Assembly: GCF_003991155.1 (NCBI RefSeq)
Contig: NZ_CP031294.1
Source of the DNA: Escherichia coli
GTDB lineage: Bacteria; Pseudomonadota; Gammaproteobacteria; Enterobacterales; Enterobacteriaceae
Reading direction: 5' to 3' (one strand)
DNA length: 64,000 nt
In this document: positions 1 to 64,000 of the stretch, one piece after another
Layout of the letters: each line of letters starts with the position of its first letter
Numbering within the stretch: the first letter of the stretch is position 1
The notes under the pieces: generated by a model
Told to the model about the DNA's origin: nothing
The model's database searches: none
What the model saw: the letters and a program-made list of their open reading frames with translations, nothing else
Position numbers and translations under genes: made by a program

Positions 1-1056
1 ATGAGCGAAAACGGCAATAAAAACATAGCGATCGTTGAAGCATTTTCAGAAACAGATAAAAAGACAGGCGAAGTTGTTACGTTGGTTCCTAACACTAATA
101 ACACTGTTCAGCCTGTTGCTTTGATGCGTCTGGGCCTCTTCGTTCCGACGCTGAAATCGACATCCAGAGGAAGAAAGGGGCAAATGGTCTCTATGGATGC
201 CTCTGCTGAACTCAAACAGCTGTCTCTGGCAAAAGCCGAAGGGTACGAAGACATAAGGATCTCTGGCCTTCGGCTTGATATGGATAACGACTTTAAAACG
301 TGGGTGGGAATAATCCACGCGTTTGCCAAACACAAGGTTGTTGGCGATACTGTCACGTTGCCGTTCGTTGAGTTTGTAAGGCTGTGTGGCATTCCGACCG
401 CCAGGTCATCAGCGAAGTTACGCAAACGCCTGGACAGTTCGCTAAGCCGTATTGCCACAAATACCATCTCGTTCCGTAGCAAAGGCTCTGATGAGTTTTA
501 CGTAACGCATCTTGTGCAAACGGCAAAATATAGTGTCAAGCACGATACGGTCGAACTGAAAGCAGATCCCAAGATTTTCGAACTCTACCAGTTCGACAAA
601 AAGGTTCTTCTGCAACTCCGGGCTATAAACGAACTCTCAAGAAAAGAATCCGCTCAGGCGCTTTATACTTTTATTGAAAGTTTGCCGCCTGATCCGGCAC
701 CAATATCACTAGCCCGTTTACGCGCCAGACTTAATCTGACAAGTCGCACTATTACTCAGAATGCGACGGTAAGAAAGGCTATGGAACAGCTGCGAGAGAT
801 AGGATATCTCGATTACACGGAAGTTAAGCGCGGAAACTCGGTCTACTTCGTCATCCACTATAGGCGGCCAAAGTTACGCCAGGCACAAATATCAACAAAA
901 ATCGATAATGATGAGACGGAATATAGCCTCCCAGATGAGAATCAAGATGACATTATCGACGTTGTGCCTGACGAAAAAGAAGGCAAAATGGTCATGTTGA
1001 GTAAAGAAGAACTGGCGCTTCTCGAAGAGTTGCGCAAGGCAAAGACTCGCAAATAG
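1..1056 (+). CDS. Putative plasmid-type replication initiator (RepA-like, iteron-binding)
   Basis: 351-aa ORF starting at window position 1, immediately followed by a dense array of direct and inverted short repeats (iterons). Family assignment is by context only, not by recognised motif. Confidence 0.5.
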
Positions 1057-1059
1057 CCC

Positions 1060-1540
1060 AACCACTGTAGTTAGTAGTAAGGCTCACTATCCACTGTAGT
1101 GAGCCTCACTTATATCTGTAATTCGCTATCCACTATAGTGAGTATCGTTATCTGTTGATAACCACTGTAGGCAGTAGAATGCAAATACTGAATTAAATGT
1201 TAGTGATCACTAACACTGATGAAACAAGGGCTGCGAGGTTAGTGGTCACTGGGTATCTTGGAAAATTTACTGTCTATAGTGGTTGTTGTCGCCCTCATCT
1301 TTGAGCGTATCCACTGTGGCGAGTGGATATCCACTGAAAACAGCAAAGGCTTACTCACCATAGTGGATACCCGCTGGACATCTCACTCCAATACTCACCA
1401 TAGTGGTTGTTTGATGCGAATGAAAGGTTGTCTACTCGCTACAGTGGTTAGCAGATATGTAGGAAGGGTTTGTTACTGACTACAGTGGATAATGAGCTGG
1501 ATACGAATGCGGTGAGCAGACTACTCACCGCAGTGGTTGG
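1060..1540. repeat. Iteron array: about 11 copies of a ~14-19 bp motif (core CCACTGTAGTGAG / CTCACCATAGTGGAT) in both orientations
   Basis: Read directly: copies near 1061, 1087, 1127, 1161 in one orientation and 1270, 1308-1335 (dyad), 1351, 1392, 1431, 1476, 1520 in the other. Confidence 0.75.
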
Positions 1541-1545
1541 TGCTA

Positions 1546-1758
1546 TTAGTGTATTTTCTTCAACAGACCCCAAAGTGTTCCGGCTTTTGTAGTCAGTTTT
1601 CCTGTTTCTGGATCGTACATACGCCATTCACGCCGCTGGTGGACGATATACCCATCTTCACGTTCCAGACGCTCAAGAATGCCAGGCTGCTTGAAACCCT
1701 TAGCACGCCAGTAGCCGCTTGTTTTCTCGATTTCCAGACCTGCCAGTGTTAATGCCAT
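1546..1758 (-). CDS. Hypothetical protein
   Basis: 70-aa ORF abutting the downstream gene (shared coordinate 1758); no recognisable motif. Confidence 0.3.
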   Translation of the reverse strand: MALTLAGLEIEKTSGYWRAKGFKQPGILERLEREDGYIVHQRREWRMYDPETGKLTTKAGTLWGLLKKIH

Positions 1759-3156: not shown

Positions 3157-3987
3157 TTATTTCACTGTAATGAAAGGAGTGTTAGCCCCTTGAGTCATGT
3201 ACTGCGGTAACTGGCCATTCCATTTATTGATGGCTTCCAGTTCCATAACGTTCGGGTTTTGACGCAGAGCTTCACCGCGCAGACGAATGGCGTCCGCTTC
3301 TGCTTGCGCACGAGCACGGATAGCATCAGCTTCACCATTAGCCTGTTCACGTAGCATATTCGCCTCAGCTTTACGTTGTTCAACTTCCTGCTGACGTTGC
3401 AGAGTACGCTGGTTAGCCGTTACTTTGGCGTTAATAGATTCAATGACAGTTTTTGGGTAATCAGGCTTTCCAACCCATGACAGGCTCAGTACCTCAATAC
3501 CAACCGGAGACATCTCTTTCTGAATATCTTTCAGTGCGTTGTCCAGCAATTGTGCCTTACCACCGTCGATAAATGAGTCAGTGGTCATACGGCTGGCCAA
3601 ACGGTTTAGAGAGTCGGCAATTTTCTGACGCAGATCTGATTCGGTGATATCGTCTACGCCTTTGCGATAGGTCTGGAACACCGTCGTTACCTTGTCACGA
3701 TTAACCAGATACGCAACGCCAATTTTGTGACCAATAGCAGTACCGTCACTCATCTGGAATGTGAACGGCTCGTCGTAGGTCTTCATTTGTTTGAAGGTCG
3801 GGAATACGTAAAGTTCGGTGTTAAGACCTGTCCATTGGCGACCAACGCCAACCACTTCACCAATCCCTTTGTCTTCACCTAATTTGTTTACTTTGATGCC
3901 AACGTATCCAGGCTCCACGCGATCGCAGCCAGTAAGACCCATTGTGCAAATAGCCGCCAGAGCAACTGCAAGTAAACCTTTCTTCAT
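3157..3987 (-). CDS. SPFH/band-7 (HflK/YqiK-like) lipoprotein
   Basis: Signal peptide with lipobox LTGC; C-terminal Ala/Glu/Arg/Gln-rich coiled region typical of the SPFH family. Confidence 0.55.
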   Translation of the reverse strand: MKKGLLAVALAAICTMGLTGCDRVEPGYVGIKVNKLGEDKGIGEVVGVGRQWTGLNTELYVFPTFKQMKTYDEPFTFQMSDGTAIGHKIGVAYLVNRDKVTTVFQTYRKGVDDITESDLRQKIADSLNRLASRMTTDSFIDGGKAQLLDNALKDIQKEMSPVGIEVLSLSWVGKPDYPKTVIESINAKVTANQRTLQRQQEVEQRKAEANMLREQANGEADAIRARAQAEADAIRLRGEALRQNPNVMELEAINKWNGQLPQYMTQGANTPFITVK

Positions 3988-4283: not shown

Positions 4284-5357
4284 TTACTCTTCTACTGACT
4301 CGGTGGGGTTGTCTTTTGCTCTTCGGTCGTCGATTGCCTGCAAAGCCGCAATGATTTCAGCCAGTGGCTTCTCCCGATACATCTCGACGATCTGCGATTT
4401 GGTGTATTTCTTGTCACCAATTTCAACTCGCCCGCTGGCGTTCTTTGGCAGGTATCCTTCTTCCAGCATGTACTCGACGAGCGATTCGATAACGTCGAGG
4501 CCACGAGTAGGATCGAAGTAGAATTTCCAGGTGCATTTGCCATACGGTGGTGCAACTTTGTTTTTGATGCATTCTGCGCCTACGTCCTGGCCGATCTTCT
4601 CTTTACCATCCTTCATCACCGATGCACCAAGACGGATACGTACAGAAGCGTAGAACTTCGGTGAATCTCCACCTGGCGACGTAGTAGGGTCGCCAAACAT
4701 TACACCGATTTTTGTGCGAACCTGATTCAAGAAGATGATGCAGGCGTTGTATTTGCGTGCCCACAAAGCCAGAGTAGGGAAGTTCGCACTCGTCGCACGA
4801 GCCAGTGCCGTATTGTCGTTCATGTTTAGCTGATCTTTGTCTTTGGCAGTGCCTTCAGCCATCTTTTCGAACTTCTCGGCTTTGGAGTTCGGAACCATAG
4901 ACGCAAGAGAGTCAGCCACGATACAGATTGGTGCTGATTCGGGGATAAGCTCTTCATCACGAACCAATTTAAGTATTGTGCCGATCAACTCTACAGAGTC
5001 TTCGAAGGTATCTGGCTGCTTGTATACCCACTGACCGTCATCCTCATCTGCGTTCAGGCCATTGGCGACAGCCAGGCCAACGTCAAAACTGTTTTCATGA
5101 TCGAGGAATACCGCCAGACCATCTTGTTTTTGAGCGGAGATCATCGCTGCTGTTGCAAGGAACGTTTTCCCTGCACTTGGAGGACCGAATACTTCGACGA
5201 TACGACCACAAGGGAAGCCGCCATCGTAACGACCAGAAATAGCTTTGTTTAACGGTGGAAAGCCTGTATCAATCCAATGAGTTACTTTCTGAATTTCGTC
5301 GTTGCTACCGATTTTCTTTTTCAGAGCAAGTGCCAGTGCGGATTTTCCTTTTGCCAT
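4284..5357 (-). CDS. RecA-family recombinase (RecA/UvsX-like)
   Basis: Walker A GPPSAGKT, Walker B-like ICIVADS, RecA-like core of 357 aa. Confidence 0.65.
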   Translation of the reverse strand: MAKGKSALALALKKKIGSNDEIQKVTHWIDTGFPPLNKAISGRYDGGFPCGRIVEVFGPPSAGKTFLATAAMISAQKQDGLAVFLDHENSFDVGLAVANGLNADEDDGQWVYKQPDTFEDSVELIGTILKLVRDEELIPESAPICIVADSLASMVPNSKAEKFEKMAEGTAKDKDQLNMNDNTALARATSANFPTLALWARKYNACIIFLNQVRTKIGVMFGDPTTSPGGDSPKFYASVRIRLGASVMKDGKEKIGQDVGAECIKNKVAPPYGKCTWKFYFDPTRGLDVIESLVEYMLEEGYLPKNASGRVEIGDKKYTKSQIVEMYREKPLAEIIAALQAIDDRRAKDNPTESVEE

Positions 5358-5359
5358 GA

Positions 5360-5632
5360 TCAGGCTCCTTTTGTTTCGTTGATTCGTTTTAAAGCGGCGG
5401 ATTCATCGAATACAATCGCATCGTGGTTAAGGAGTCTGGATACACGAGCGAGGATTTTTACGACCTGCTCGCTGACTAATCCAAACTCGCGATCTGTCGC
5501 TTTCATTCCGGCAGCGCCTAGAATTGACGGCAGTGCGATGACAGCGTACTCACCGTGATAAAAGACAATCTCTTTTGCCAGTTGGGCAGGGGTGGTTGTA
5601 GCGCCATTGATAATCGATTTAAGCATTAGCAA
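5360..5632 (-). CDS. Hypothetical protein
   Basis: 90-aa ORF tightly packed between the recombinase and flap endonuclease genes. Confidence 0.35.
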   Translation of the reverse strand: MLMLKSIINGATTTPAQLAKEIVFYHGEYAVIALPSILGAAGMKATDREFGLVSEQVVKILARVSRLLNHDAIVFDESAALKRINETKGA

Positions 5633-6621
5633 TACCTTTCGAATGGAAGAACAAACACTTCAAGGTCTTCAAGGAACGAACGGAAATTCAGCTCGTAGCA
5701 CAGTTGCTCGAATGCTTTCACGTCACGATTGCCTTTGATTGTTTCGATTTCGGTAGGCGGAAACTTCGTCTCAATCAGGTTCATTAGCGTGATGTTTCTC
5801 TTGAACGCTTCGAGCATTCGACAGCCTGTTTTCTCGTTGAAGGCATTCTTCGCTAGTTTGTTGAAGGCGGTCTTATGACGCCCTTTATTAACCACGATTG
5901 AGCCGTCGTTGATGCCGCGTACCATCGTTGCGACACTTCCCCATTCATGCAGCAGCTCTTTCGCACCGCCAGCACCAATGCCACCAACACCGCTAATGTT
6001 GTCCGAGTTATCGCCTTGTAATGCTTTTGCTTCCAAAAATGCGCGAGGCGTGGCGAATCCTGTCAGCTCCGCAAATTGCTCAAAATTAACCTGCTTGTTT
6101 TTGGCGTCTTCACGCAGGCTTACCCAGCTTACGTTTTCACGAACTAACTGAAGCCAGTCGCTATCGCCTGTTAACAGATAGATGTGTTCAACGGTTGGCT
6201 GCGGTGCCATGCGGGATACCAGCAGCCCGGCCAGATCATCCGCTTCTGCATCTTTTGCAATGAGTTGGGTAACTCCAAGCGCGGTCATCATTTTGAGGAT
6301 GTATGGCTTCTGGATAGCAAAGCCTTCCTTCATCTTTTTCATATCAGGATCGTCGTCGCGATTTGCTTTGTAGTCCGGGTAAAAGTCGCGACGCTTGTCA
6401 CTAAATCCATCCCAAAGAATCATAGGTCGGGCATGGAGGATGGAGGCATAACGACGGACGTTCTTAACAAAGCCGAAAGCAGCCTGTACTTCCATTTCGC
6501 CGTTGTGCAATTTGTCAGATTGTTGGTGGTAATAACCCAGGCTATTGCCATCTACGAAGAGATAATTCACCGGTACATTCCTTCCAAAAAGTAAGGCGTC
6601 CGTAGACGCCTTACTGGTCAC
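5626..6621 (-). CDS. Flap endonuclease / 5'-3' exonuclease (RNase H-like, FEN family)
   Basis: Acidic catalytic clusters (AKDAEADD, TGDSDWLQL) and an H3TH-like glycine-rich segment (NISGVGGIGAGGAKELL). Confidence 0.7.
   Translation of the reverse strand: MTSKASTDALLFGRNVPVNYLFVDGNSLGYYHQQSDKLHNGEMEVQAAFGFVKNVRRYASILHARPMILWDGFSDKRRDFYPDYKANRDDDPDMKKMKEGFAIQKPYILKMMTALGVTQLIAKDAEADDLAGLLVSRMAPQPTVEHIYLLTGDSDWLQLVRENVSWVSLREDAKNKQVNFEQFAELTGFATPRAFLEAKALQGDNSDNISGVGGIGAGGAKELLHEWGSVATMVRGINDGSIVVNKGRHKTAFNKLAKNAFNEKTGCRMLEAFKRNITLMNLIETKFPPTEIETIKGNRDVKAFEQLCYELNFRSFLEDLEVFVLPFERYC
6584..6612 (-). terminator. Rho-independent terminator (minus strand)
   Basis: Hairpin AAGGCGTC-CGTA-GACGCCTT with a minus-strand T-run (plus-strand CCAAAAAG). 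Confidence 0.5.
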
Positions 6622-6630
6622 GTAATGGGA

Positions 6631-7659
6631 TTACAGAGAGTCCAGCTCTCTCAGTAGGTCATCCAGACCTTCATCTTCCGTCGCAGATGCGGTTGCTACA
6701 GATGTCGCTGCGACTGCTTCAGACTCTTTGACTGATACGGCAACGGCAGCGGAACTTGCCTCTGGTTTAAATTCAGTTTCAACGGCACGGAGGATTTCTT
6801 CATCAACCAGACTGGTTGGTTCAGAAGCCGGTGTGTGCGCGGTTGCTACAGCCGTCGCTCCTTCTGTATGACCAGTGACAGAGCCAAATCCAGGCAGTGC
6901 CGCGGTCGATGTTTTCGCGGTAGAGGAAATTGCTGGTGCAGATGCAGAGGCAGTTGGTGCTGCGATGCCAATCAGACGACCCATAGTGCGAACTGTCGAG
7001 AGAAGACGAGTTTCATCAGCCTGATTTGCGTATGCGATCAGGTCATGCTGGGTATTCCAGAATTTATCTTCGATATCGCCTTTGTAGACTTTACGCTTAG
7101 GCGAGACGTCATATTTGGTATCGCGACCAGAGCCAGTACGTTTAATCAGGAATGCGTAGCCTTCCTCTTTGCTCAGTGGATTGCCGATATCATCAGCGAT
7201 GTCTTCGGTGATTGCTTTGCAGATATCATCGAATACAGTAGACGGCAGCTCGATTAACTGGCATTTCTCAGCATCTGCGAAATCCTCACGAGCAGAAAGA
7301 ATGCCGTTGACCAGGTAGCGAGGCGTGGCACGCATTTGACCGATGCGTTCTTCCATTGCTTTGTTACCCTTGTGACGAGCGCGACCTTCCATCACCATTT
7401 CGCATAGCTGACAAGCGCGACCGTGAGTATGTTGCTCACAAATATAAGCGTTGGTTGCTTCTTTACCTTCCTCGTTCTGATACTTAACGTAGTGCATACC
7501 GAAAGTCTGGAAGAACTTACCGTTTGGGTCGTCTTTATTCGGGAAGATGCGGATATAGTTGACGCCGTCTTTTAAGCGAGTCAGATCAACGTTGTTACCA
7601 CGTTTGGCGGCAATGTCTTCACGAGTTTTGTTAAGCAAATCAAGTAATGTCTTAGACAT
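6631..7659 (-). CDS. Putative ssDNA-binding protein (gp32-like)
   Basis: Cys/His cluster CEQHTHGRACQLC resembling a zinc-binding subdomain, Ala/Ser/Thr-rich linker and acidic C-terminal tail (EDEGLDDLLRELDSL); sits between nuclease and polymerase genes. Confidence 0.4.
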   Translation of the reverse strand: MSKTLLDLLNKTREDIAAKRGNNVDLTRLKDGVNYIRIFPNKDDPNGKFFQTFGMHYVKYQNEEGKEATNAYICEQHTHGRACQLCEMVMEGRARHKGNKAMEERIGQMRATPRYLVNGILSAREDFADAEKCQLIELPSTVFDDICKAITEDIADDIGNPLSKEEGYAFLIKRTGSGRDTKYDVSPKRKVYKGDIEDKFWNTQHDLIAYANQADETRLLSTVRTMGRLIGIAAPTASASAPAISSTAKTSTAALPGFGSVTGHTEGATAVATAHTPASEPTSLVDEEILRAVETEFKPEASSAAVAVSVKESEAVAATSVATASATEDEGLDDLLRELDSL

Positions 7660-7776
7660 GTGTTTCTCCTTGTTGTGATTTGGCCGATGGCGCTATGCGC
7701 GTTGGGCTTTCGTTCATTCGTGGCTCTTTCGAGCTGTTAAATGATAGATCAGTACTTACTTATTATCTATCAAAAA

Positions 7777-8208
7777 TCAACGGGGAGTAATAAAGCGTTC
7801 AGAGCCTAATCGCTCTAATTCAACGATGGCCATCTTTGACGCCTGAACGATCATGTCTCGGCGATGCGAAAAGGCGGCGACAGCATGTTTGTATATGTCT
7901 GCGATGTGCCGTGCTTCATCCAACTTCTGCCGTTTAGACAGATACTGTGGGTTTGTTTTAACCTTAGCGTCCAGTACAGATTCGTTGAACTTAATGCCAT
8001 TCATACTCAAGTTCTTACGCTCTGTGTCGTATAGCTTTGCTTCAACAGCTTCAAGGTTAAGTTTTGCTTCTGCGACACTTCTTTCTGCATGGGCGAGTTT
8101 TGAGCCATATTCCATCAACAGGCGGGGTTGTCTACGCCAGACTTCTTCCAGATTGTCTCGGTCAAACTCGAGATCGGACATGATTTTTTCGTATATATTG
8201 GTGCTCAT
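7777..8208 (-). CDS. Hypothetical protein (predicted coiled coil)
   Basis: 143-aa ORF with no recognisable catalytic motif. Confidence 0.4.
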   Translation of the reverse strand: MSTNIYEKIMSDLEFDRDNLEEVWRRQPRLLMEYGSKLAHAERSVAEAKLNLEAVEAKLYDTERKNLSMNGIKFNESVLDAKVKTNPQYLSKRQKLDEARHIADIYKHAVAAFSHRRDMIVQASKMAIVELERLGSERFITPR

Positions 8209-8452
8209 TTTGATAGATTCTCACTTATCATGATGTATTGATTATAGAGCTTAAATTAACGCTAATCCAAGATAGACCGTTATGCTATCTGCTCGAACAA
8301 CCATTTCTTAGGGCTTGTTAATTGCAGGAGTTTCTCCTATTGTGTTCGTGGATTTAATCGAAAGAAATATGGGTTTTGAAAAGGATAGAATCTTCATGTT
8401 TCCGCACAGCATTTATCATTAATTATTCAAATTAAAAGGAAATATTATCCTC

Positions 8453-9043
8453 ATGTTTGATATTTATAATTTATTAAAGCAAATAGCAGAGAACACGAAA
8501 CCTGACCATTCTGCTATTTGGATTGCTGTAATATCTTCAATATCAGCTATTGCAGGCGCTGCTATTGGTGCATATTTGTTATATCGAGGCACAAACGAAC
8601 AAATTAATTCTGCTGCTGCTATTGAAGATAAAAAATTAAAAGCAACTATAATTACCGCAGAAAGACTTCGTTGGCTTCAAGAGCTAAGGTCAAGAAGTAG
8701 TGAGTTTTATGCGAATCTCGATATGAATTACAACTTATTAAAACGACCGATAAATCCGCAGGCAATCCCGACATATCAACAAGCTGGGGACGAACTGGCG
8801 AAAATTGTAATGATTCAATGCAATCAGATAATTGTATTGCTTAATCCTAAAAAAACTCATCAGCAAACTATTTTTAATAAATGTAATGATGCACTTAAAT
8901 TTTTCATGGAATGCGTCGAAGAAAAAAATAATGGTAATCTGAACTTTGATGATTCCAAGTATGCGGAAATAAAAAACGATTACTTTAATGCTTTAACTGA
9001 AATAGGTATTGAAACTTGGAAGCAGATAAAAGAGTTAAGTTGA
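8453..9043 (+). CDS. AT-rich accessory gene: membrane-anchored protein of unknown function
   Basis: Plus-strand ORF inside a minus-strand block; visibly lower GC than flanks; hydrophobic helix at residues ~20-45; own downstream terminator. Confidence 0.5.
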   Translation: MFDIYNLLKQIAENTKPDHSAIWIAVISSISAIAGAAIGAYLLYRGTNEQINSAAAIEDKKLKATIITAERLRWLQELRSRSSEFYANLDMNYNLLKRPINPQAIPTYQQAGDELAKIVMIQCNQIIVLLNPKKTHQQTIFNKCNDALKFFMECVEEKNNGNLNFDDSKYAEIKNDYFNALTEIGIETWKQIKELS

Positions 9044-9104
9044 TGTCTTATTGGCGGAAGATAATTAATAACTATCACTACACGGAATCTGCAATTAATA
9101 AATG

Positions 9105-9133
9105 AAACCCGCGATTGGCGGGTTTTTTATTTA
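9105..9133 (+). terminator. Rho-independent terminator (plus strand)
   Basis: AAACCCGC-GATTG-GCGGGTTT hairpin followed by TTTTATTTAT. Confidence 0.6.
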
Positions 9134-46287: not shown

Positions 46288-46298
46288 AAAATCCTTGT

Positions 46299-54075: not shown

Positions 54076-54130
54076 TGGTTAAAATCCTTTTAAAAGAGAG
54101 GCCCATCCTGAGCCTCTGCTTAATTACTGA

Positions 54131-55458: not shown

Positions 55459-55810
55459 TTGGTGGGTTTGTCACGTTCTTCATTCGAGAAAGATAACCGA
55501 GTCGGTATTTACCCAGCTCCATGTACTTAGCATAGTCACCTACTTCTACGCCCGGATGCCCCTGACGTGGTTTTGCTCCAGACACAGAAAGCTCAATACG
55601 CAGCCCTGAATAACCTTCTTTAATCACCCTGGCAAAGATGGCTGTCTCCAGAGATCCGGTTTCCAGCGGGGCCATTGCACGGCTGAGACGCTCAACCAAA
55701 CGCGCCAGCTTTTCCATGTCCCGGATAAGATATCGCTTAAATGCTTTCTGGCTGTTGTTGAGTCGATTCCCCGCACGTTTGAACTGATGCGCATCGTATT
55801 TCAGACCCAT
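55337..55810 (-). CDS. Head-tail connector candidate
   Basis: 157-aa ORF within the head-tail joining block; position only. Confidence 0.35.
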   Translation of the reverse strand: MGLKYDAHQFKRAGNRLNNSQKAFKRYLIRDMEKLARLVERLSRAMAPLETGSLETAIFARVIKEGYSGLRIELSVSGAKPRQGHPGVEVGDYAKYMELGKYRLGYLSRMKNVTNPPIAGVKPRVGPHFLERAVEISEKQFSEAILEAARKAGFTRG

Positions 55811-56241
55811 ATATTCGCCCCTACTTCAAGATGCCCAGGTCTTCCTCGTAGCCCCCAGCGGCGATGAACACTGGACACCTTTAATTTTTGACCTTCAAGG
55901 ATCAGCACATCATCAAGTTGTACAGCCGCTTCTAAAGGGACAACTAACACAGCATCAAACAGCTCCAGACTCGCCTTACCACGACTACCAGAGCTATCAG
56001 CACGAACTGACGATTTCTCATTACTCTGTTCGAACTTAACCACGCCGACATTCGTCTTCCTGACGAATTGTAATTGCGCCTCGCCGTAAACGTTCTTTGC
56101 GCCAAAGCGGTAGATCGCAATTTCTGTTTGCCACGAAATATTCATGCTCTCTCTCTGTTGTTGTCGGTCGCTCTCATTACTGGCCAAAAACCCTTTCGAC
56201 CAAAAGTAAATAATGCGACTGGCGTTACGCACGGCGAACAA
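55801..56241 (-). CDS. Head completion / head-tail adaptor candidate
   Basis: 146-aa ORF, overlapping neighbours by a few nt; position only. Confidence 0.4.
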   Translation of the reverse strand: MFAVRNASRIIYFWSKGFLASNESDRQQQRESMNISWQTEIAIYRFGAKNVYGEAQLQFVRKTNVGVVKFEQSNEKSSVRADSSGSRGKASLELFDAVLVVPLEAAVQLDDVLILEGQKLKVSSVHRRWGLRGRPGHLEVGANIWV

Positions 56242-57058
56242 TCATACGGTTGTTGATGTAACTGACCAGCAAGCGCCAGGTACTGCGAGCCACATGAACG
56301 TTTGCAGCTTTACCGGTACGGTACATGTTGGTTGTTTCACCGATTGACTCTGACAAAATGCCATCCTCTCGTGCTGCGGCAACATCATTGCCATTTGCGA
56401 TCTCACACGCTTCGTTGACAACGGCAAGCATCAACGCTTCTTTGAAGTAGTCAGGGAACTCTTCAAACTTCTCCTGCGTCATCTTTTCCCAATCGACTAA
56501 ATCATGCCGGTACGCTCCATCTGCTCCCCACGGAATGTCATACACATTCAGCATATTTTGAGGGCGATCGTATCGGTCAAAGTCGATACGTAGAATTTTG
56601 CGGATTGAGAACGGTAAAGTTTTAATTCGTCTGGTAGCCTCAATGAGACGCTTGCGCATTAAGCCTTCACCATCCGACAGCAAAGTGTCCCCATTCAGCA
56701 TATCGATCGCCTGCATTTGAGCATCAGCGACAGTTGCAAACGACTGTTCTGGTATCGACAGTTCAAAACTATTCAGCAGAACATACATTTGCCGCTCTTC
56801 ATGCGTCAGACCCGATGCAACAGCCTTCACAATGACGTACCGCAGATCGCGTTCTTTCTCAGAGAGCTGGTTATATTCAGCCGACACGACAACCGGAATC
56901 GACATTTGACCGCTGGTAATTTCTAGCGGCTCGCCATCAACGAGAATAGCCCCGGTGCTGTCCTTTACTGTGTAGGTAGCAGATTCGATATCCAGCACGT
57001 TGAAGGCAAATGAAAGGGAAACAGCTTCACCGCTACGATACGAGTCGATCTGCGCCAT
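56225..57058 (-). CDS. Hypothetical structural protein
   Basis: 277-aa ORF in the head module. Confidence 0.4.
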   Translation of the reverse strand: MAQIDSYRSGEAVSLSFAFNVLDIESATYTVKDSTGAILVDGEPLEITSGQMSIPVVVSAEYNQLSEKERDLRYVIVKAVASGLTHEERQMYVLLNSFELSIPEQSFATVADAQMQAIDMLNGDTLLSDGEGLMRKRLIEATRRIKTLPFSIRKILRIDFDRYDRPQNMLNVYDIPWGADGAYRHDLVDWEKMTQEKFEEFPDYFKEALMLAVVNEACEIANGNDVAAAREDGILSESIGETTNMYRTGKAANVHVARSTWRLLVSYINNRMIVRRA

Positions 57059-57492
57059 TACTCACCGCCTTGTGCTTTCAGGATGCCTTCAATCATCTCG
57101 ACAATTCCTTTCGCTTTGACACCAACCTGATTACCAATCACACGTAGACCGGCAATGCCTTCATTGTCTGCAATTGACTCCAACTCTTCTCGTGTGAAAG
57201 TCTGGATCTGTTTGGCCGGTTCATCTGGTGTCCCACGTTTCATTGGCACAATGTCAGGTGCTGCTGGCTCGGTAATCAGGTCTGCGGTCAACTCGCCACG
57301 ATCACTGTATGCGGCAGACGGAGAAACATTTTTGCCCTCGACTGTTGATGCTCGCATTGAGGCACAAATCCTTTGCTGATCGATAAAAGGCAACTCCGCT
57401 ACGGACACCCCGTTCTCGAACTGAACGCCGCACAACATTCCCGAATAACCGGAAAATTGCGGTTCTAATAAAACAATTTTTGCTGGTTTCAT
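57058..57492 (-). CDS. Hypothetical structural protein
   Basis: 144-aa ORF sharing coordinate 57058 with the downstream gene. Confidence 0.4.
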   Translation of the reverse strand: MKPAKIVLLEPQFSGYSGMLCGVQFENGVSVAELPFIDQQRICASMRASTVEGKNVSPSAAYSDRGELTADLITEPAAPDIVPMKRGTPDEPAKQIQTFTREELESIADNEGIAGLRVIGNQVGVKAKGIVEMIEGILKAQGGE

Positions 57493-57536: not shown

Positions 57537-58457
57537 TTATTCCTGTGCAGCAGTGACTTCTACGGTCGCTGTCGCTTTGTGGCTACCATCTTGGGTAGTA
57601 ACCTCGATTGTGGCAGTACCAGCCGCAACGCCAGTTACAACACCGGTTTCGCTATCCACCGTTGCAAACTCGGTATTTTTGGATTCCCAAGTAACGGTTT
57701 TATTTGTTGCTCCTGCCGGCTCGACATTTGCGGTCAGCTGAACAGTTTTGTTTGCCTCAACGGTTGTGCTATTTGGGTCGATTTCGACGCCGGTAACAGC
57801 CACAACAGGCGCAGTTACTTCCACCGTTGCAGTTCCCTTTTTGCTGCCATCTTGGGAAACGATCTCAATCGTCGCAGTGCCAACTTCTACACCAGTAACG
57901 TTCCCGCTCTGGTCTACCGTTGCCTTGTCTTCATTTTTGGAAGACCAAGTAACTGCCTTATTCGTCGCATTTGACGGCTGAACATTCGCTTTCAGACTGA
58001 CTGATTTCCCTTTCTCAACAGAGGTTGAGTCTGGCGTTACCGTTACGGATTGAACGGCTACCGGATTTACGGTGACTTCCACTGACGCGGAAAGCTGGGT
58101 TTCCTGATCAGTTGCGGTAATTTTCACTTTGCCTGGTGCTACGCCAGTTACTAATCCAGTGCCGTTGACGGTTGCAATTTGATCATTGGCTGACTTCCAG
58201 GTGAATGAACTGGCACTCTTACCCATAGTAATACCTGCACTAAGTTGAACAGTTTTCCCAACCAAAACTGACGGTGAAGCCGGGGTTATGTTTACGGATT
58301 GGGAGAAGGGAACCGCCTGCAAACAAGCAGATAGCTGACTTTGTTGTCGCTCGGTTAAAGGTTCATCGGAGATAGAATTGGTAAATCCGGCACGGCACAT
58401 ATGCCCCGTAAAATCCGAAAATGCCTCTTCCGTAATCTTCATCTTTTGTTCTGGCAT
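57537..58457 (-). CDS. Ig-like domain protein (three Big_2-type repeats); probable capsid decoration or head fibre
   Basis: Three ~85-aa repeats of the pattern VT...V..GK...L.A.V.P..ATNK.VTW.S.N...ATVD..G.VTGV..G.ATI; directly downstream of the capsid gene. Confidence 0.55.
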   Translation of the reverse strand: MPEQKMKITEEAFSDFTGHMCRAGFTNSISDEPLTERQQSQLSACLQAVPFSQSVNITPASPSVLVGKTVQLSAGITMGKSASSFTWKSANDQIATVNGTGLVTGVAPGKVKITATDQETQLSASVEVTVNPVAVQSVTVTPDSTSVEKGKSVSLKANVQPSNATNKAVTWSSKNEDKATVDQSGNVTGVEVGTATIEIVSQDGSKKGTATVEVTAPVVAVTGVEIDPNSTTVEANKTVQLTANVEPAGATNKTVTWESKNTEFATVDSETGVVTGVAAGTATIEVTTQDGSHKATATVEVTAAQE

Positions 58458-58500
58458 TTCTCGCTCCTACAAAAAGGGTGGGCGTATAGCCCACCCTTTA
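58458..58500 (-). terminator. Rho-independent terminator downstream of the capsid gene (minus strand)
   Basis: AAGGGTGGGC-GTAT-AGCCCACCCTT hairpin followed on the minus strand by TTTTTGT. Confidence 0.5.
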
Positions 58501-58530
58501 ACATAGATAATTACTTATCTACTTCACTGA

Positions 58531-59406
58531 TTAAATTTTTACATTGGTCAGTGCAGCGATAGCCTTATCGTGCTTATTCGCCAGAGAGCAGTACCACTTC
58601 ACACGGGTACGTACTGCGTCTTTGTTCTGTACAGTACCAATGTTTTCAACAACGATACCTGCGTTGTCGCCGCCATACAGACCAGTAACGCCGTTCTCTT
58701 CTGACAGATGCAGGCAGTAGATGCTTGCTTTGCCAGAATCGGTCGGGATGAAGTCGTTGATGATGAACGGAACGCCGTTATGACACAGCATCGGACGACC
58801 GAAGTTCTCCATCATGATTTCAGACGGACCTACGTTTACTGTACGCAGCAGCGCACGGTAAGCACGCAGGTGCTCTGAACGCATCATGATGCAGTCAGCA
58901 CCAAGATCTTTCACCGCATCGACCAGTTCGTCGAACATAGAGAAAGTCATAGATGCACCGGCGATATCGATCTTCTGATCTGCGTGCATCAGGCGTGGAA
59001 TGCCGTCAAACGCCTTGTTGTTGGAGCTGGAGTCACCCAAAATCAGGTTGCGACGGAACGCACGAGCCAGACCTTTAACTTTCTGACGAACCTGAATAGC
59101 CAACTGGTTGTTGGTGTCGGCCATAGTGGTCGCCAGGAATTTATCAACGTCTACGTCACCAGCCAGAATACGCAGTTTCGCAACGCATTCTTCGAAGGTT
59201 GCTGCACCTTCAGGGATGGTGTCGTTAACGTCGATGAAGGTAGCTTCACTCAGCGTTTTTTCACGGTTGTACAGATATGCCTTTGAATTAATTTTCATAA
59301 AAGGCAGGATGGCAAACAGGTCATCGCGATCGATGATAGTTTCGATCACACCCTGTTCAAGTTCGTTGTTAGACAGCTTTTCAGCTTCTTCACGCAGTAA
59401 TGGCAT
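58531..59406 (-). CDS. Major capsid protein
   Basis: 291 aa; position after the scaffold gene, strong terminator immediately downstream; no motif check possible. Confidence 0.55.
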   Translation of the reverse strand: MPLLREEAEKLSNNELEQGVIETIIDRDDLFAILPFMKINSKAYLYNREKTLSEATFIDVNDTIPEGAATFEECVAKLRILAGDVDVDKFLATTMADTNNQLAIQVRQKVKGLARAFRRNLILGDSSSNNKAFDGIPRLMHADQKIDIAGASMTFSMFDELVDAVKDLGADCIMMRSEHLRAYRALLRTVNVGPSEIMMENFGRPMLCHNGVPFIINDFIPTDSGKASIYCLHLSEENGVTGLYGGDNAGIVVENIGTVQNKDAVRTRVKWYCSLANKHDKAIAALTNVKI

Positions 59407-59431
59407 CTATCAATTCCCTTTGATTTAGATG

Positions 59432-60319
59432 TTACTTAAGTCCAATTTTCCCCAGACCGGAGGCCAACTTATCCATAGTCGACTTGTTCTTCGGTTGGGA
59501 TATTGTGTAGGTCGATTTGGAATGTGAGCCTACACCCTGCTTGGCTTCGCTACGCATCAATGCGTCAGCTTCCGGATCTGCCCGCACAATGCGTTCAATC
59601 GCGGATTCAAACGGCAACGGCTTACCTTCACCGTCAACCAGAACAGCTCGTTCTTTGTGACCTGCCGGTTTGTCATAACCCACTACGCTACCGTCTTCAC
59701 CCACTTCAAAATGAGAACCGTAGATCACGCGGGCTTTTGCCGGGGTCATCAGAACTTTGTCACGTAGGAAGAGAGAGTTACTGAAGGAAGCGCCCACGGT
59801 CATCTCGACTAATTGAGATTTCAGTGATGCGTTTTCACTTTCCAGTGCTGCATAACGTTCGTCACGCTGTGCCAGCTCTGCCTGGTGTGCTTCGATCATC
59901 TGTTTTTTAACAGCATCGAACTCACCACGACGCTCCAGTTCAGCTTGCTCCGCCTCACGACGTGCGTTTTCTGCGGCCTGTTCAGCTTCTAAAAGCTGGC
60001 GAGCACGAGCCGGATCGATATCACCGTACTGAGCAAGCTGATCGGCCAATGTGCGCTCTTTCTCTTTGCGCTTCATGTTCTCCTTCAGCAGTTCAGCACC
60101 AGCTTTCTTGGTTTTACGAAGTTCGGCCAGTAACTCTTCCTGAGTCATGCCAGCGTATTCGTCATCGCCCTTCGGCTGCTCTTTTTGTTCACCCTGTTTG
60201 TCAGGATCTTGTGTACTCTGCTCATTATCAGCAGCTACACCGCCAGCGCCTCCACGCTCATGCGCTTCAGCGACATCCATCAGACCACGACGGGCCAAAA
60301 GCATTTGCCACAGATTCAT
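59432..60319 (-). CDS. Scaffolding protein
   Basis: Highly charged Glu/Ala/Arg/Gln-rich predicted coiled coil, between portal and capsid genes. Confidence 0.5.
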   Translation of the reverse strand: MNLWQMLLARRGLMDVAEAHERGGAGGVAADNEQSTQDPDKQGEQKEQPKGDDEYAGMTQEELLAELRKTKKAGAELLKENMKRKEKERTLADQLAQYGDIDPARARQLLEAEQAAENARREAEQAELERRGEFDAVKKQMIEAHQAELAQRDERYAALESENASLKSQLVEMTVGASFSNSLFLRDKVLMTPAKARVIYGSHFEVGEDGSVVGYDKPAGHKERAVLVDGEGKPLPFESAIERIVRADPEADALMRSEAKQGVGSHSKSTYTISQPKNKSTMDKLASGLGKIGLK

Positions 60320-60340
60320 AAAAATTCCTTTTGTTACTTA

Positions 60341-61915
60341 TCACTCGTTCTCTTGAGTAGATGAGTCCCCATTCCCTCGGGGTTGATCTTGCCCGCTTTC
60401 TTGGGCTGCACCACGATCATAAGTAAGTACTGACTTATTTTCAAGGGTATTTAGATCATTTTTTGGAGGAAAATTCAAGAGATCTTTATCAAATTCCTTT
60501 TTCATCGCCTCAGTAATGTTCGGGAAAATCTTCTCAATAAGCATTTCCATCTGGTGACGACGTACAGAGTCCGGTGCCTGAAGTAATGACAGTTTCTCGG
60601 CAACAGAAAATTCATCAGTAAGGCCACGAATATCGAAACTTTCTGGATATGCAATTAAAGAGTGGTCTTCGTCCAGATCTACCCCCATCCATTTCGCAAC
60701 CAGTAGCATGATTTGGCGTTCAGCCCTTTCCAGACGCTCTGCTTTTGTGACAAGCAAGCTATTTACACGCTGGAAGTCATACATTTTTGCGGCACCAGAT
60801 GAATTATCGATTCCCTGTGCGTTGTCCTGCTTCGTTCGCTCACCAGCTACACCAACTGAATGGTAGATTTCGTTAATCACCGTCTTAATCGTAGTGATGA
60901 TCATCTGAGCTTGTTTCGGGTCTGGTGACAGATAAAACGGCTGGTTTCCACCTTCAGAATCGTAGGTGAAGACTCGCTTTGTGCCCATTTCAAGCACTTT
61001 AGTGTGGTTTTCATCACCAGGTAAAAGCGACTGTACCGGTATAGCCAACTGGCTAAATGTCTGATCCTGAATAATGGCATCAAGGTTTGACAGATAGTTT
61101 GCAACCGCACGATCAAGATAAGCGATATCATCGATCAACGATGGGCTGAAATACGGTGATTCACTTTCTCCAATACAATCAACAGGAAACACAGGAACTA
61201 CGCCGAGATTATGCTCACCGCTATCCTCTAAAATAACTTTTGCCTGACGGCGACCTGCTCCACCAGCGCCCTTCTTCACTTCCTCACGGAACAGATACCA
61301 CTCGTTTTGTGTCCACAGACGATAACGTTGGTATTCCTGACCTGTAGAAGTAAAAGGATCTGCGTCATCACGAGCGACTTCCACAATTAACGCCCACAAC
61401 ATATTCCCGTCGTCGTCCCATGCCACATCCAGCATTTGCTGAGGTGAAATCCAGTAGGCGTAGGCGCGAGCATCTTTCTTTTTCTCGTCAGCTACTGACT
61501 CAACATCACCACTCATCGTGCTATCGACAACAACCCATATGCGACCGTAAATAGACGACTGCAAATCAATAGCGGCCATAAATGAGTCAATAGAGGCATT
61601 CTGGCGAGTCGCACGTTTCCAGAAATTGCGGATCTGCTCTGGTGCCTCTTCGATATTTCTATGAATGTCTTCTTTAAAGAGATATTTGTTGATGAGGTTT
61701 ACCACCTCACGAGTGTGGTTGAAGCGATAAGCACGTTCAACTCGCTCCTTAAACTCCTGATCTCCCTCTTTAAAGTAACGAAAGATATTGTCTGTAAACC
61801 AACCACGCCCGCCAGCGTAAGTGCTGGCGAGGAAGTCCCAATGTTCTTTTTTCTTTTCGTATTCCGGGTGGCGTCGCGCCACCAGATCCTTAATTTGTTT
61901 GTCGTTCAATTCCAT
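60341..61915 (-). CDS. Portal protein
   Basis: 524 aa, immediately downstream of the terminase large subunit; position and size only. Confidence 0.6.
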   Translation of the reverse strand: MELNDKQIKDLVARRHPEYEKKKEHWDFLASTYAGGRGWFTDNIFRYFKEGDQEFKERVERAYRFNHTREVVNLINKYLFKEDIHRNIEEAPEQIRNFWKRATRQNASIDSFMAAIDLQSSIYGRIWVVVDSTMSGDVESVADEKKKDARAYAYWISPQQMLDVAWDDDGNMLWALIVEVARDDADPFTSTGQEYQRYRLWTQNEWYLFREEVKKGAGGAGRRQAKVILEDSGEHNLGVVPVFPVDCIGESESPYFSPSLIDDIAYLDRAVANYLSNLDAIIQDQTFSQLAIPVQSLLPGDENHTKVLEMGTKRVFTYDSEGGNQPFYLSPDPKQAQMIITTIKTVINEIYHSVGVAGERTKQDNAQGIDNSSGAAKMYDFQRVNSLLVTKAERLERAERQIMLLVAKWMGVDLDEDHSLIAYPESFDIRGLTDEFSVAEKLSLLQAPDSVRRHQMEMLIEKIFPNITEAMKKEFDKDLLNFPPKNDLNTLENKSVLTYDRGAAQESGQDQPRGNGDSSTQENE

Positions 61916-61941
61916 TTGAATAACCTTAGATAATTACTTAC

Positions 61942-63198
61942 CTATCGAGAACCACCAAGAATAACACGGTTTTTGACTGGATACCTACGATGTACTGGAT
62001 AGCCCAATGCGTCTGCACTATGCTCAATGCCACCTGTCTTATCCATATCTCGTGTTCCAGGCTTGTAGATGACTTTTTCCAGTGAATCAATCAAATGCTT
62101 GCACTTCGGATCGATATACAGCCGGATATCTCCAGATGCGGTCATCAGCATTCGGTTAACAGCATTAACACGATCCGCAATTGGCGGGTGCTTTTTCGAA
62201 TAATCGACACGTAAGAATCCCTTCTCTTTGAATATGTCGACGTCAGACTCCCCGCGAGCATGTTGGCGATAAGCACCTGCCGGATCTGGAAATACCGTTA
62301 TCTGTGATTTCCAGCGCCAGAAGCGTCTCTCAAGCTCATCACAAACCTCTGCCGTGTTAGAGGAAAAGAGCACCAATTCATCAATTGCCCATAGCTCACC
62401 ATTTGGCTGAGGTTGCAAAATTACTGAAGACATCGGGTCAATGTTGAAGTCCTGCCCTACCCATATAGGCAACCGAGGGTTGAACTGAAGCGGTTTTACA
62501 TGCACGTTACGATCGAACGGGTAGTAAACGCGCCCGGACATGTTCTCAAAGCTCGCCAGGTACTCCTGAGCGAACGATTTCGGGTCCATATCGTTCTTAG
62601 CAGCTTCAATTTCCGCCGTAGGTACAAACGGAGAATCGGCAGTTACAAACTGCCAGCTCTTCCACTGTCCCTTTCTTTGCAGCTCTACGTTCTGGCCTAT
62701 AGTCCACAGTTTGTGAAATTCCGAGAAGCCTTTTGGCGTACCAATGATCAGTGCACCGCCGCGTGTCGATGAAAGAGTAGGTCGTAACACCTTGTACCAG
62801 GTGTCAGCCTTCATATCCTGAAATTCATCAAGCACTACAAAATGCAACGCTACGCCGCGCAGAGTGTCAGGCTTATCAGCACCTTTGAGGGCGATCTCCG
62901 AACCGTTCTTCAACACGATTGTCATCGTGGTGTCGTTCTTTTTCCTAACCCACTTACGAGGCAGAACTTCCTGTAGATCGTCCCACAAAATCTGGCGAGC
63001 CATCTGGTAAGTAGGAGCGACATACCAGACTCTTTGCTTTTTTTCCTTTGCCGCCGCACGAATAATAGTGGAGATCGACAACCGGGATTTTCCCCAGCGT
63101 CGACCAGCACAAACAACTTTAAATCGATGCGGAGACTGGAAGACTTTCATCTGTCCAGAATGCAGTTGCACAAGACTGAGCGAGGACGGGATTGCCAT
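61942..63198 (-). CDS. Terminase large subunit
   Basis: Walker A CAGRRWGKS, Walker B VVLDEFQD, C-terminal nuclease-like region with acidic residues; 418 aa. Confidence 0.8.
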   Translation of the reverse strand: MAIPSSLSLVQLHSGQMKVFQSPHRFKVVCAGRRWGKSRLSISTIIRAAAKEKKQRVWYVAPTYQMARQILWDDLQEVLPRKWVRKKNDTTMTIVLKNGSEIALKGADKPDTLRGVALHFVVLDEFQDMKADTWYKVLRPTLSSTRGGALIIGTPKGFSEFHKLWTIGQNVELQRKGQWKSWQFVTADSPFVPTAEIEAAKNDMDPKSFAQEYLASFENMSGRVYYPFDRNVHVKPLQFNPRLPIWVGQDFNIDPMSSVILQPQPNGELWAIDELVLFSSNTAEVCDELERRFWRWKSQITVFPDPAGAYRQHARGESDVDIFKEKGFLRVDYSKKHPPIADRVNAVNRMLMTASGDIRLYIDPKCKHLIDSLEKVIYKPGTRDMDKTGGIEHSADALGYPVHRRYPVKNRVILGGSR

Positions 63199-63830
63199 TA
63201 TTCGTCCTCCCCTTCACTTCCATCATCTGTCGCATCAAATTCGCTTAGAGCTTCTTCTTCCAACGTCTCAAGCAATTCGTCATCGATGATTTCAGGCTCG
63301 TCGTCTTCCTGACGTAATTTCGCCACCTGGGAAGGCGTAAGCTCACCAAATACCAGGTTCGGAATTTCTTCCTCGTCATTTTCCGCATGATCCATGCCCA
63401 ATGCTTTGGACGAAACTTCAAAGCATTTTGCAAGGGTATTACTGGCTCTCTGTAAGCTCTTGAGAGAATCCTCAATCGCCCCTAAAGGCTTACCCTCACG
63501 TTTGGCCGTAGTGACTTCGACCATCACCATCTGCCCCAACGCATACGCCCAGCCGTCATAACGTGTACGACGTTCTTCTATCTTTTCCGCACGGGCTTTA
63601 GCGCGAAGCTCTGCGTCAGATTTAAGAGACTCACGAACCATCTTCCCAACAGAGTCCGCGCCTTTCTCTAATCCTCGCTTTTTGAAATGTCTGGAGAGTG
63701 TTTCACGACGAATGCCGTACTCTTCCTCCAGCTTTGAGAGTGTATATTCGCCTGACGTCCATTTGGCTTCAGCTTCGGCCCACTCCGCTGGTGTCAGGCG
63801 AGTTTTTACCTCGTCTTTTTCGACCGTCAT
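63198..63830 (-). CDS. Terminase small subunit
   Basis: 210 aa with acidic C-terminal tail and an N-terminal HTH-like segment; stop overlaps the large subunit start. Confidence 0.5.
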   Translation of the reverse strand: MTVEKDEVKTRLTPAEWAEAEAKWTSGEYTLSKLEEEYGIRRETLSRHFKKRGLEKGADSVGKMVRESLKSDAELRAKARAEKIEERRTRYDGWAYALGQMVMVEVTTAKREGKPLGAIEDSLKSLQRASNTLAKCFEVSSKALGMDHAENDEEEIPNLVFGELTPSQVAKLRQEDDEPEIIDDELLETLEEEALSEFDATDDGSEGEDE

Positions 63831-64000
63831 AGATCCCTCTAAAACACACAGAGCGCGTCCATGCGCTCTAAAACAACTTGTTTACTGCATCTGCTAACCA
63901 ACTTGTTTTCTGGGGTGTTTAATTAGGTCTGGCATGTCTTACGAAGCCTGCTTCCGTATATATTTAATAAGTTACTTATTATTTATATATACAGATGCAG

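Follow-up and report, generated by a model that had tools for sequence, protein, structure and literature searches.

What kind of element carries, on one stretch of DNA, the replication and partition genes of a plasmid together with the tail, capsid, and terminase genes of a virus? This question is raised by 64,000 nucleotides of Escherichia coli DNA (contig NZ_CP031294.1), the whole of which we call the window. A sequence-only reading had taken it for a phage-plasmid, and we reach the same view with high confidence: the window covers 58%, from repA to terminase, of a temperate siphovirus maintained as a circular IncFIB plasmid of low copy number, belonging to the SSU5 supergroup and, within it, to the E. 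coli lineage of Cyrano (pLF82). Over positions 1-64000 it differs by 4 substitutions (12940, 22563, 28970, and 31838) from the circular plasmid P2 carried by E. coli isolate 162, which comes from a hospital in Madrid (NZ_OW849379.1; 110,667 bp), the first 25 kb aligning at 100% identity, and that plasmid is typed by MOB-suite as IncFIB and non-mobilizable. The window starts at the ATG of repA and ends just past the small-terminase candidate, and on the other 46.7 kb of NZ_OW849379.1 lie genes of nucleotide metabolism, of a type I restriction-modification system, and of an S24 peptidase, together with metG/apbC, two ParB/Srx genes, and the iterons on the origin side.

Plasmid and phage modules therefore stand together on a circular IncFIB replicon, and three of the features by which Pfeifer et al. 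(2021) define phage-plasmids, namely plasmid replication/partition genes, core phage functions, and an extrachromosomal replicon, are found; for the fourth, infectious virions and lysogeny as a plasmid, the evidence is from the 97%-identical Cyrano only (qPCR of protected DNA, induction, and electron microscopy). The SSU5 supergroup consists of IncFIB siphovirus phage-plasmids in which the phage core is conserved and the plasmid-like cargo varies (PMC7969092), and the window has the IncFIB type, the siphovirus structural genes, and both relatedness and synteny with SSU5 and pHCM2. Comparison with these two elements had been proposed before; both are colinear with the window, and so is Cyrano (OV696614), which is the plasmid pLF82 of the adherent-invasive E. 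coli strain LF82 and has the same gene order from terminase to repA. Cyrano aligns with 85.5% of the window at 97.4% nucleotide identity and matches 54 of the 63 proteins at a mean amino acid identity of 97.7%; pHCM2 aligns with 77.8% at 79.2% and also matches 54 proteins (mean 84%), and SSU5 with 75.0% at 79.4%, matching 51 proteins (mean 84%). A sum like the wGRR (weighted gene repertoire relatedness), computed on the window only, gives 0.68 for SSU5 and 0.72 for pHCM2. The sub-type is probably pSLy3, as the E. coli lineage is called, in view of the host, of a size that falls within 85-134 kb, and of relatives having ISEcp1 blaCTX-M-15 insertions.

This architecture is already known from the SSU5 supergroup (Pfeifer 2021), and there is nothing new in the architecture itself. 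The identification nevertheless accounts for the whole gene content at once and frames any accessory-gene finding in the window, given that the accessory genes ride on a widespread plasmid-borne temperate phage, present in about 5% of the complete E. coli genomes, whose family is also a carrier of blaCTX-M-15 and dfrA51.

Virion genes and plasmid location

The lysis and virion genes form a single uninterrupted minus-strand block of 28 kb (35947-63830), and by PHROGs this is a full lysis and virion gene set, in agreement with the earlier claim of a complete virion module. The PHROGs scores reach 1.6e-105 for the major head protein, 3.5e-54 for the scaffold, 6.4e-141 for the portal, and 6e-64 for the large terminase, with the small terminase candidate being so named in Cyrano only, since its PHROG is a DNA-binding domain. 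The tail module is 91-100% identical to that of Cyrano, and it has a long tape measure and a lambda-type tail tip, with no sheath gene found in the PHROGs scan. All the components named by the sequence-only reading (RepA with iterons, ParA, tyrosine recombinase, toxin, tail, capsid and terminase genes, four tRNAs, and DnaE) were found intact. Its description of plasmid and phage modules as interleaved is loose: in the first 35 kb, DNA-metabolism genes separate repA, the recombinase/toxin island, and parA from each other, but nothing interrupts the virion block.

A tyrosine recombinase of the structural class of lambda Int, lying near a tRNA cluster, which is a common integration target, could also belong to an integrative prophage, in which case the recombinase would be a true integrase having a chromosomal attB, and the plasmid record would be an excised or mis-assembled form. 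Chromosomal copies were sought in 5,426 complete E. coli genomes, with the virion block in a near search and with the regulator-recombinase module in a distant one. The virion block occurs in 424 places in 259 genomes, all on plasmids, most of 101-115 kb, and the module in 254 places in 251 genomes, again all on plasmids; not a single place of either set is chromosomal, in the case of the module even at low stringency. Three contigs of 0.2-1 Mb with an 86%-identical recombinase fall outside this check of chromosomal location. The idea of an island inserted at a tRNA gene was also discarded, because positions 16300-21900 showed neither a tRNA 3'-end repeat nor att-like direct repeats flanking the island; besides, no arm-binding domain was detected in the recombinase, and the element comes with a RepA, iterons, and a ParA of its own. 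An integrative prophage is thus largely refuted, and we consider it extremely improbable. Neither integration in a chromosome with att sites nor pseudogenised Rep and Par genes, the two findings on which the sequence-only reading had staked itself, apply here, because the chromosomal places number zero and RepA, ParA, and all the virion open reading frames (ORFs) are full length. The element types concerned have been reported as solely extrachromosomal (PMC9600943), and so has the class (PMC12977533).

The window is nearly identical to a phage-plasmid that has been induced experimentally. Cyrano is present at 5.5 copies per chromosome, its protected DNA is 32-fold over the plasmid background, ciprofloxacin induces it 39-fold, and its particles are those of a siphovirus by transmission electron microscopy, with 76-nm heads and 259-nm tails, no permissive indicator host being reported in that study (PMC9928086). 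The element of the window might nonetheless be a cryptic plasmid with a defective prophage remnant, that is, one that replicates and segregates without producing infectious particles. Several facts speak for this and so against a functional phage: the related E. coli pSLy3-type element of strain 166F4 was not packaged after mitomycin C (PMC9600943), pHCM2 was long held to be cryptic and both it and pR444_B have been described as cryptic plasmids, and the backbone gene rnhA, outside the window, is frameshifted. On the other hand, each of the 24 ORFs for lysis, tail, neck, head, and packaging has its full length, they are 89-100% identical to those of the particle-producing Cyrano, and their 28-kb block has no insertion sequence element or frameshift, so we regard a defective remnant as unlikely. 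By analogy with Cyrano, lytic competence of this element is likely. Each mechanistic step in this isolate, here and in what follows, is one that we infer: after DNA damage, the element would use its own replication set (DnaE, the DnaB-like helicase, primase, ligase, flap endonuclease (FEN), single-stranded DNA-binding protein (SSB), and RecA/UvsY), and the four tRNAs and the contiguous lysis-tail-head-terminase block would then serve to make ~100-kb siphovirus particles.

Replication, partition, and the recombinase dyad

RepA has both Rep3 winged-helix domains and is 100% identical to the RepA of Cyrano and 91-92% to those of SSU5 and pHCM2. When the entire 110.7-kb plasmid was searched for the 11-mer core of the iterons, allowing up to 1 mismatch, 12 of the 12 matches fell in the flanks of repA, and this confinement excludes chance. 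The origin-side iterons lie outside the window because the window begins at the repA ATG: upstream of the gene, at 110012-110625 of the plasmid record, 21-bp-spaced iterons occur in two arrays, together with DnaA boxes and a GATC cluster. This region contains two tandem origin-like units about 375 bp apart, each of which has some five 21-bp-spaced iterons besides a GATC cluster and a sequence resembling a DnaA box; the units are 78% identical in their spacer part, which amounts to an apparent origin duplication. Iterons on both sides of the initiator gene are the layout of P1 (oriR/incC-repA-incA) and of RepFIB. By analogy, RepA would bind the 21-bp-spaced iterons of the origin just upstream of its gene, with its DnaA boxes and GATC cluster, as in P1 oriR and RepFIB, and the second array, 3' of repA, probably controls the copy number, as incA does in P1, limiting it through titration or handcuffing of RepA.

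For partition, ParA is a small Walker-A ATPase without an N-terminal helix-turn-helix (HTH) domain. Its best solved homologue is ParF of TP228 (4dzz, E 1.4e-10, residues 9-200), and its match to the NCBIfam ParA_partition model (1.8e-33) lies below the cut-off. The 117-amino-acid protein encoded next to it is found only on ~100-kb SSU5-like contigs across Enterobacterales, and has a basic disordered N-terminus and a motif, SRTMSLEDEY...TRSDVIRAAI, typical of ribbon-helix-helix (RHH) proteins; it also matches weakly (2.3e-4) the aCcr1 family, which we take to be an RHH family. On sequence grounds, the two genes may constitute a ParF/ParG-like type Ib operon, in which the ParF-like ATPase and the small basic protein encoded directly downstream would segregate the plasmid copies.

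Against this proposal it must be counted that the RHH assignment of the ParA partner comes from a sequence motif and one weak match, whereas the structure search gave nothing: the AlphaFold2 (AF2) model of the 117-amino-acid protein has a predicted local distance difference test (pLDDT) score of 70 and no strand, and Foldseek found no match at E below 1. A profile search of the PDB sequences for the partner gave nothing meaningful either, and no convincing centromere repeats were seen near parA (33100-34500), the one feature there being a 12-bp hairpin that follows the operon. Moreover, two ParB/Srx genes outside the window are possibly the true partners of ParA. These lie with two ABC-type ATPase genes just beyond the small terminase, at 64302-67199 of the plasmid record (the ParB/Srx genes themselves at 65851-67199) and about 30 kb from parA, and the set is conserved in SSU5, pHCM2, and Cyrano. 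In the literature searched, there was nothing linking SSU5 or pHCM2 to partition, iterons, or multimer resolution.

The tyrosine recombinase takes its place from the fold search alone, given that the search of PDB sequences gave no match. Its AF2 model (pLDDT 82.6) best matches lambda Int (1z1b, 7.7e-7), and the ranking goes from the core-binding and catalytic domains of lambda Int to Tn1549 Int, then Xer, and more weakly Cre. The catalytic candidates R185, K211, R284, H307, and Y316/Y321 are invariant, and the model has a helical N-terminal extension of about 55 amino acids. The arm-binding Pfam domain (PF13356) is absent from this protein and its close homologues, and present in more distant P4-type homologues. 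Convergent with the recombinase gene is that of an HTH regulator, absent from SSU5, which would keep the lytic genes off in the carrier state.

About 100 bp upstream of the recombinase start there is a dyad of two 13-bp arms around a 7-bp spacer. Cyrano has the same 13-7-13 layout in the same place, and the layout is kept in nine relatives (seven other genera), with arms of 12-14 bp that are conserved or co-vary symmetrically, a spacer of 5-7 bp that is free to vary, and a distance of 42-100 bp to the recombinase start. Elements with the dyad come from Escherichia, Salmonella, Citrobacter, Klebsiella, Nissabacter, Xenorhabdus, and Providencia. In Xenorhabdus and Providencia, where the recombinase is 44-46% identical, two shared changes appear in both arms (TGACTCCAGAC), so the symmetry is kept while the spacers differ; the spacer is TTAATAG in pHCM2, CTTACAA in two E. 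coli plasmids with a module only ~73% identical, and CTACCAA in pKP389-3. The homology between the window and Cyrano ends exactly at 18578, at the outer edge of the dyad, and it ends at 18577-18580 in 22 of the 25 sampled E. coli relatives, with variable cargo and tRNAs always just beyond, so that the dyad is the edge of a cargo hot spot.

The sites of Cre-loxP, Flp-FRT, and Xer-dif consist of two inverted arms, some 11-14 bp each, separated by an asymmetric spacer of 6-8 bp, and the dyad conforms to this layout. Its most likely reading, which we favour somewhat over all others together, is that of a lox-type site for multimer resolution or circularisation. The wider proposal, on which we are evenly divided, is that recombinase and dyad make up a Cre/loxP-like system of SSU5-type phage-plasmids, resolving multimers or circularising incoming DNA, with the site doubling as an entry point for the exchange of lineage-specific cargo such as toxin cassettes, anti-defence genes, and tRNAs, and the spacer defining lineages that do not recombine with each other. 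In the carrier state, the recombinase would most likely keep the replicon monomeric, and may re-circularise incoming DNA, acting on the dyad as Cre does on loxP in P1.

The main rival is that the dyad is an operator, for the HTH regulator or for autoregulation of the recombinase, which would then have another target or no current role, or else that it is a site with both roles, operator and recombination. The dyad does lie where the promoter of the recombinase is expected, and the regulator is always the neighbour of the recombinase, so the co-variation of the arms cannot separate the two proteins. However, arms of 13 bp with an asymmetric and freely varying 7-bp spacer match sites of the loxP, FRT, and dif types and are longer than the typical half-sites of XRE regulators, and for most relatives the synteny is lost no more than 2 bp from the dyad's outer edge, so that the operator seems to us the lesser possibility. 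A point against the overall account is that recombinase, regulator, and dyad are together missing from SSU5, so the family can do without this module.

The exact 13-mer of the arm recurs in three other places, none of which we give weight: one inside dnaE, one at the start of the ORF 22872-23024, and one at 22001-22013, intergenic and just beyond the tRNA cluster. The first two are no evidence for extra recombination sites because they are coding and are kept in the recombinase-less SSU5, where the copy at 22001 persists only in degenerate form. An integron-like reading of the cargo region was rejected, since the cargo has around it only a single full site and a distal half-site; this half-site resembles a duplicated 5' end of the small conserved ORF, and its degenerate form survives in SSU5. 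If the dyad is lox-like, it would explain both the monomeric state of large low-copy elements and the turnover of cargo at one precise junction, and it may provide a set of naturally heterospecific recombination sites. No description of the recombinase-dyad pair was found in the literature searched, so the dyad is possibly a detail not described before, and we consider the pair a modestly interesting lead.

Cargo and DNA-metabolism genes

Beyond the dyad comes a two-gene cassette with a YafO-family toxin, and further on a KAP-family NTPase in an island of 36% GC, both absent from Cyrano, SSU5, and pHCM2 (Table 1). No YafN-type antitoxin was recognised upstream of YafO, where the 202-amino-acid protein has no credible family in Pfam (a sub-threshold match at chance level, E 0.007), NCBIfam, or PADLOC; this protein is possibly a new antitoxin for YafO. 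A similar pair adjoins the dyad in pTB212 (locus L016, 9245-10179). The KAP NTPase is, by its sequence matches, a candidate anti-phage defence gene and the only cargo gene with a credible PADLOC match, as none was obtained for the SPFH protein, YafO, or the remaining unknown ORFs, and the tetratricopeptide repeat (TPR) protein has a single marginal match (PtuA, 1.7e-5) with no stretch passing alone. The YafO cassette and the KAP NTPase are lineage-specific cargo, which probably acts in addiction or defence in the carrier state. In a Klebsiella relative (L022, 1422-1667), the cargo region by the dyad has a gene of the Acb2/Tad1-hairpin Pfam family, an anti-defence family, which suggests that the hot spot collects defence and counter-defence genes.

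That accessory genes act in the carrier state, as had been supposed, is supported only indirectly. In the transcriptomes of LF82 lysogens, expression is above background for CYRAN_45, the homologue of the HTH regulator, for CYRAN_29, the gene after parA, and for CYRAN_43, a cargo gene at the position that YafO has here (723-fold) (PMC9928086); these are Cyrano homologues or genes of the same hot spots.

The four tRNAs are placed by ARAGORN and the RefSeq annotation, and three of the four pass the Rfam gathering score, with the class II tRNA-Ser scoring 46.6 bits against the related tRNA-Sec model, 0.4 short of the threshold of 47. Their region (21228-21812) is 92-94% identical to the tRNA regions of P7 and D6, which are P1-like phage-plasmids, and about 78% to those of N4-like phages, and therefore the cassette is common to unrelated phages; each relative has one to four of these tRNAs. 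The unannotated minus-strand ORF 22872-23024 encodes 50 amino acids (MIPYISLAFMGGFLIGFGIC...), is homologous to CYRAN_38 and SSU5_047, and has the dyad arm as its first 13 nucleotides; its product is probably a small membrane protein. Outside the window, at 78418-81709 of the plasmid record, there are a full-length metG (methionyl-tRNA synthetase) and apbC, as in Cyrano, and further on a type I restriction-modification system, dfrA51, nrdAB, and thyA.

Among the DNA-metabolism genes, the 3' third of dnaE (9251-10594) is only 82% identical to Cyrano or unalignable, with flanks at 97%, which suggests a recombination patch inside an essential replication gene. The recA gene (4284-5357; 357 amino acids) is an intein-less allele, while Cyrano, with a RecA of 780 amino acids, and most E. 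coli relatives have an in-frame LAGLIDADG homing-endonuclease insertion of 1263 bp (421 codons) at about position 5167.

Table 1. Positions of the features in the window, with the evidence for each; the positions of the dyads of relatives refer to the loci (L) of these relatives.
Feature	Position	Strand	Evidence or remark
repA, iteron-type (Rep3/RepFIB-like) initiator	1-1056	+	Pfam Rep3_N 1.3e-10, Rep3_C 1.3e-4
Iteron array directly 3' of repA	1059-1539		~11 copies of core ATCCACTRTAG, five forward, six reverse
SPFH/stomatin-like membrane protein	3157-3987	-	Conserved backbone gene; Pfam Band_7 2.6e-30; 94% identical to SSU5
Recombination module: RecA, 5'-3' exonuclease, gp32-like SSB, UvsY-like mediator	4284-8208	-	Pfam RecA 2.2e-42, 5_3_exonuc_N 1.9e-24; SSB and UvsY names from Cyrano annotation; 82-95% identical to SSU5
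Island differing from Cyrano	8229-9250
dnaE, DNA polymerase III alpha subunit, 1172 amino acids	9262-12780	-	RefSeq annotation; 94% amino acid identity to SSU5
AAA+ (CobS/MoxR-like) ATPase and CobT-like von Willebrand factor A (VWA) protein	12961-16400	-	Pfam AAA_5 1e-15, CobT_C 2.4e-83, CobT 5.1e-27
HTH regulator, convergent with recombinase	16963-17349	+	Weak Pfam HTH_19 match; 100% identical to putative repressor CYRAN_45
Tyrosine recombinase	17344-18447	-	Pfam Phage_integrase 2.9e-10; lambda-Int/Xer-like core-binding and catalytic domains
Dyad AATGATTCCATAC-ATAGTAG-GTATGGAATCATT (13-7-13)	18546-18578		Candidate lox-like recombinase target or operator
Dyads in relatives	L011 17443-17475; L015 9069-9103; L016 9043-9077; L017 8483-8513; L018 9869-9903; L022 2882-2914; L023 2910-2944; L024 2904-2934; L025 2924-2958
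Island differing from Cyrano	18579-19772		YafO and 202-amino-acid partner
Two-gene cargo cassette	18621-19649	-	202-amino-acid protein, then YafO-family toxin
YafO toxin	18621-19031	-	Pfam YafO_toxin 4.7e-22 (above cut-off); NCBIfam 7.7e-16 (below equivalog cut-off)
202-amino-acid protein	19041-19649	-	Directly upstream of YafO, 9 nucleotides apart
Island differing from Cyrano	19991-21072
tRNA cluster Ser(UGA), Thr(UGU), Tyr(GUA), Asn(GUU)	21251-21808	-	ARAGORN and RefSeq annotation
Island differing from Cyrano	21338-21731		Extra tRNAs
ATP-dependent DNA ligase	23396-24718	-	Pfam DNA_ligase_A_M 8.8e-13
Island differing from Cyrano	26091-27952		Unknown gene and TPR protein
DnaG-like primase and DnaB-like replicative helicase	27938-30541	-	Pfam Toprim_2, DNAG_N (weak), DnaB_C 8.7e-13; 91-93% identical to SSU5
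Island differing from Cyrano	31498-33248		KAP NTPase
KAP-family P-loop NTPase	31504-33198	-	Pfam KAP_NTPase 1.6e-5; PADLOC candidate system PDC-S49 6.7e-22
Putative type Ib partition operon	33250-34277	-	ATPase and 117-amino-acid protein
117-amino-acid basic protein, RHH-like motif	33250-33603	-	Start 5 nucleotides after parA stop
ParF-like ATPase (ParA)	33609-34277	-	222-amino-acid Walker ATPase
Island differing from Cyrano	34385-35818
Lysis cassette: holin candidate, endolysin/transglycosylase, Rz spanin	35947-37229	-	PHROGs endolysin 4.9e-88, Rz-like spanin 4e-25; Cyrano annotation
Virion genes	37432-63830	-	Preceded by lysis cassette
Tail module: side fibre, J, I, K, L, M, tape measure (1523 amino acids), two chaperone-size ORFs, immunoglobulin (Ig)-bearing tube protein	37432-54877	-	PHROGs
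Four neck/connector genes (tail completion, neck, head closure, adaptor)	54952-57492	-	phrog_927 tail completion/Neck1; Cyrano annotation
Head/packaging: Ig-domain decoration protein, major capsid, scaffold, portal, large terminase, small terminase candidate	57537-63830	-	PHROGs

Comparison with known systems

The virion had been called lambda-like, which is right for one part of it. The tail tip genes M, L, K, I, and J stand in the same order as in lambda with 29-40% amino acid identity, part of the side fibre corresponds to lambda Stf, and the 57537-58457 protein has a short Ig-like stretch resembling lambda V (42% identity over 28% of the protein). In contrast, tblastn against lambda gave no match for terminase, portal, scaffold, capsid, neck, tube, or tape measure, and the alignment to lambda covers only 1% of the window, so the label does not extend to the rest of the virion. 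Nor does the element have the O/P replication genes, the cI/cro immunity region, or the chromosomal integration of lambda; the lambda-type head, packaging, replication, and immunity modules by which a lambdoid phage is recognised were not found.

With P1, the likeness is one of plasmid maintenance. In P1, too, repA is flanked by iterons on either side, the origin has DnaA boxes and GATC repeats, partition is by an active ATPase, a short dyad is found close to the gene of a tyrosine recombinase, and toxin-antitoxin genes are among the cargo; the tRNA cluster of the window is 94% identical to that of P7 and D6. However, P1 is a myovirus with unrelated structural genes, and it uses a type Ia ParA/ParB in place of the small ParF-like ATPase present here; the recombinase of the window is closer by structure search to lambda Int and Xer than to Cre, and its dyad has a spacer of 7 bp, not 8.

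SSU5 and pHCM2 share with the window the IncFIB RepA, the ParA operon, the DnaE replication set, and the siphovirus virion module, while their tail fibres differ (46% amino acid identity or no match). SSU5 is without a 5.2-kb segment (16499-21732) that contains a 70-amino-acid gene, the regulator, the recombinase, the dyad, the cargo, and three tRNAs, having tRNA-Asn only, whereas pHCM2 has the recombinase module with a different spacer and different cargo.

Cyrano differs from the window in its cargo, at about seven hot spots. Only the window has YafO and the 202-amino-acid gene, a 302-amino-acid gene, an extra tRNA-Tyr, the TPR protein, the KAP NTPase, and two unknown genes (34454-35574), and Cyrano has cargo of its own in CYRAN_43, KacT with its antitoxin, HicAB, and CYRAN_30. 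Further differences are the recA of the window, without the 421-codon LAGLIDADG intein, and the 3' third of dnaE, which is 82% identical. Common to both, finally, are RepA, the ParA operon, the recombinase with its dyad, and the lysis/virion block, with RepA, capsid, portal, and terminase being 100% identical.

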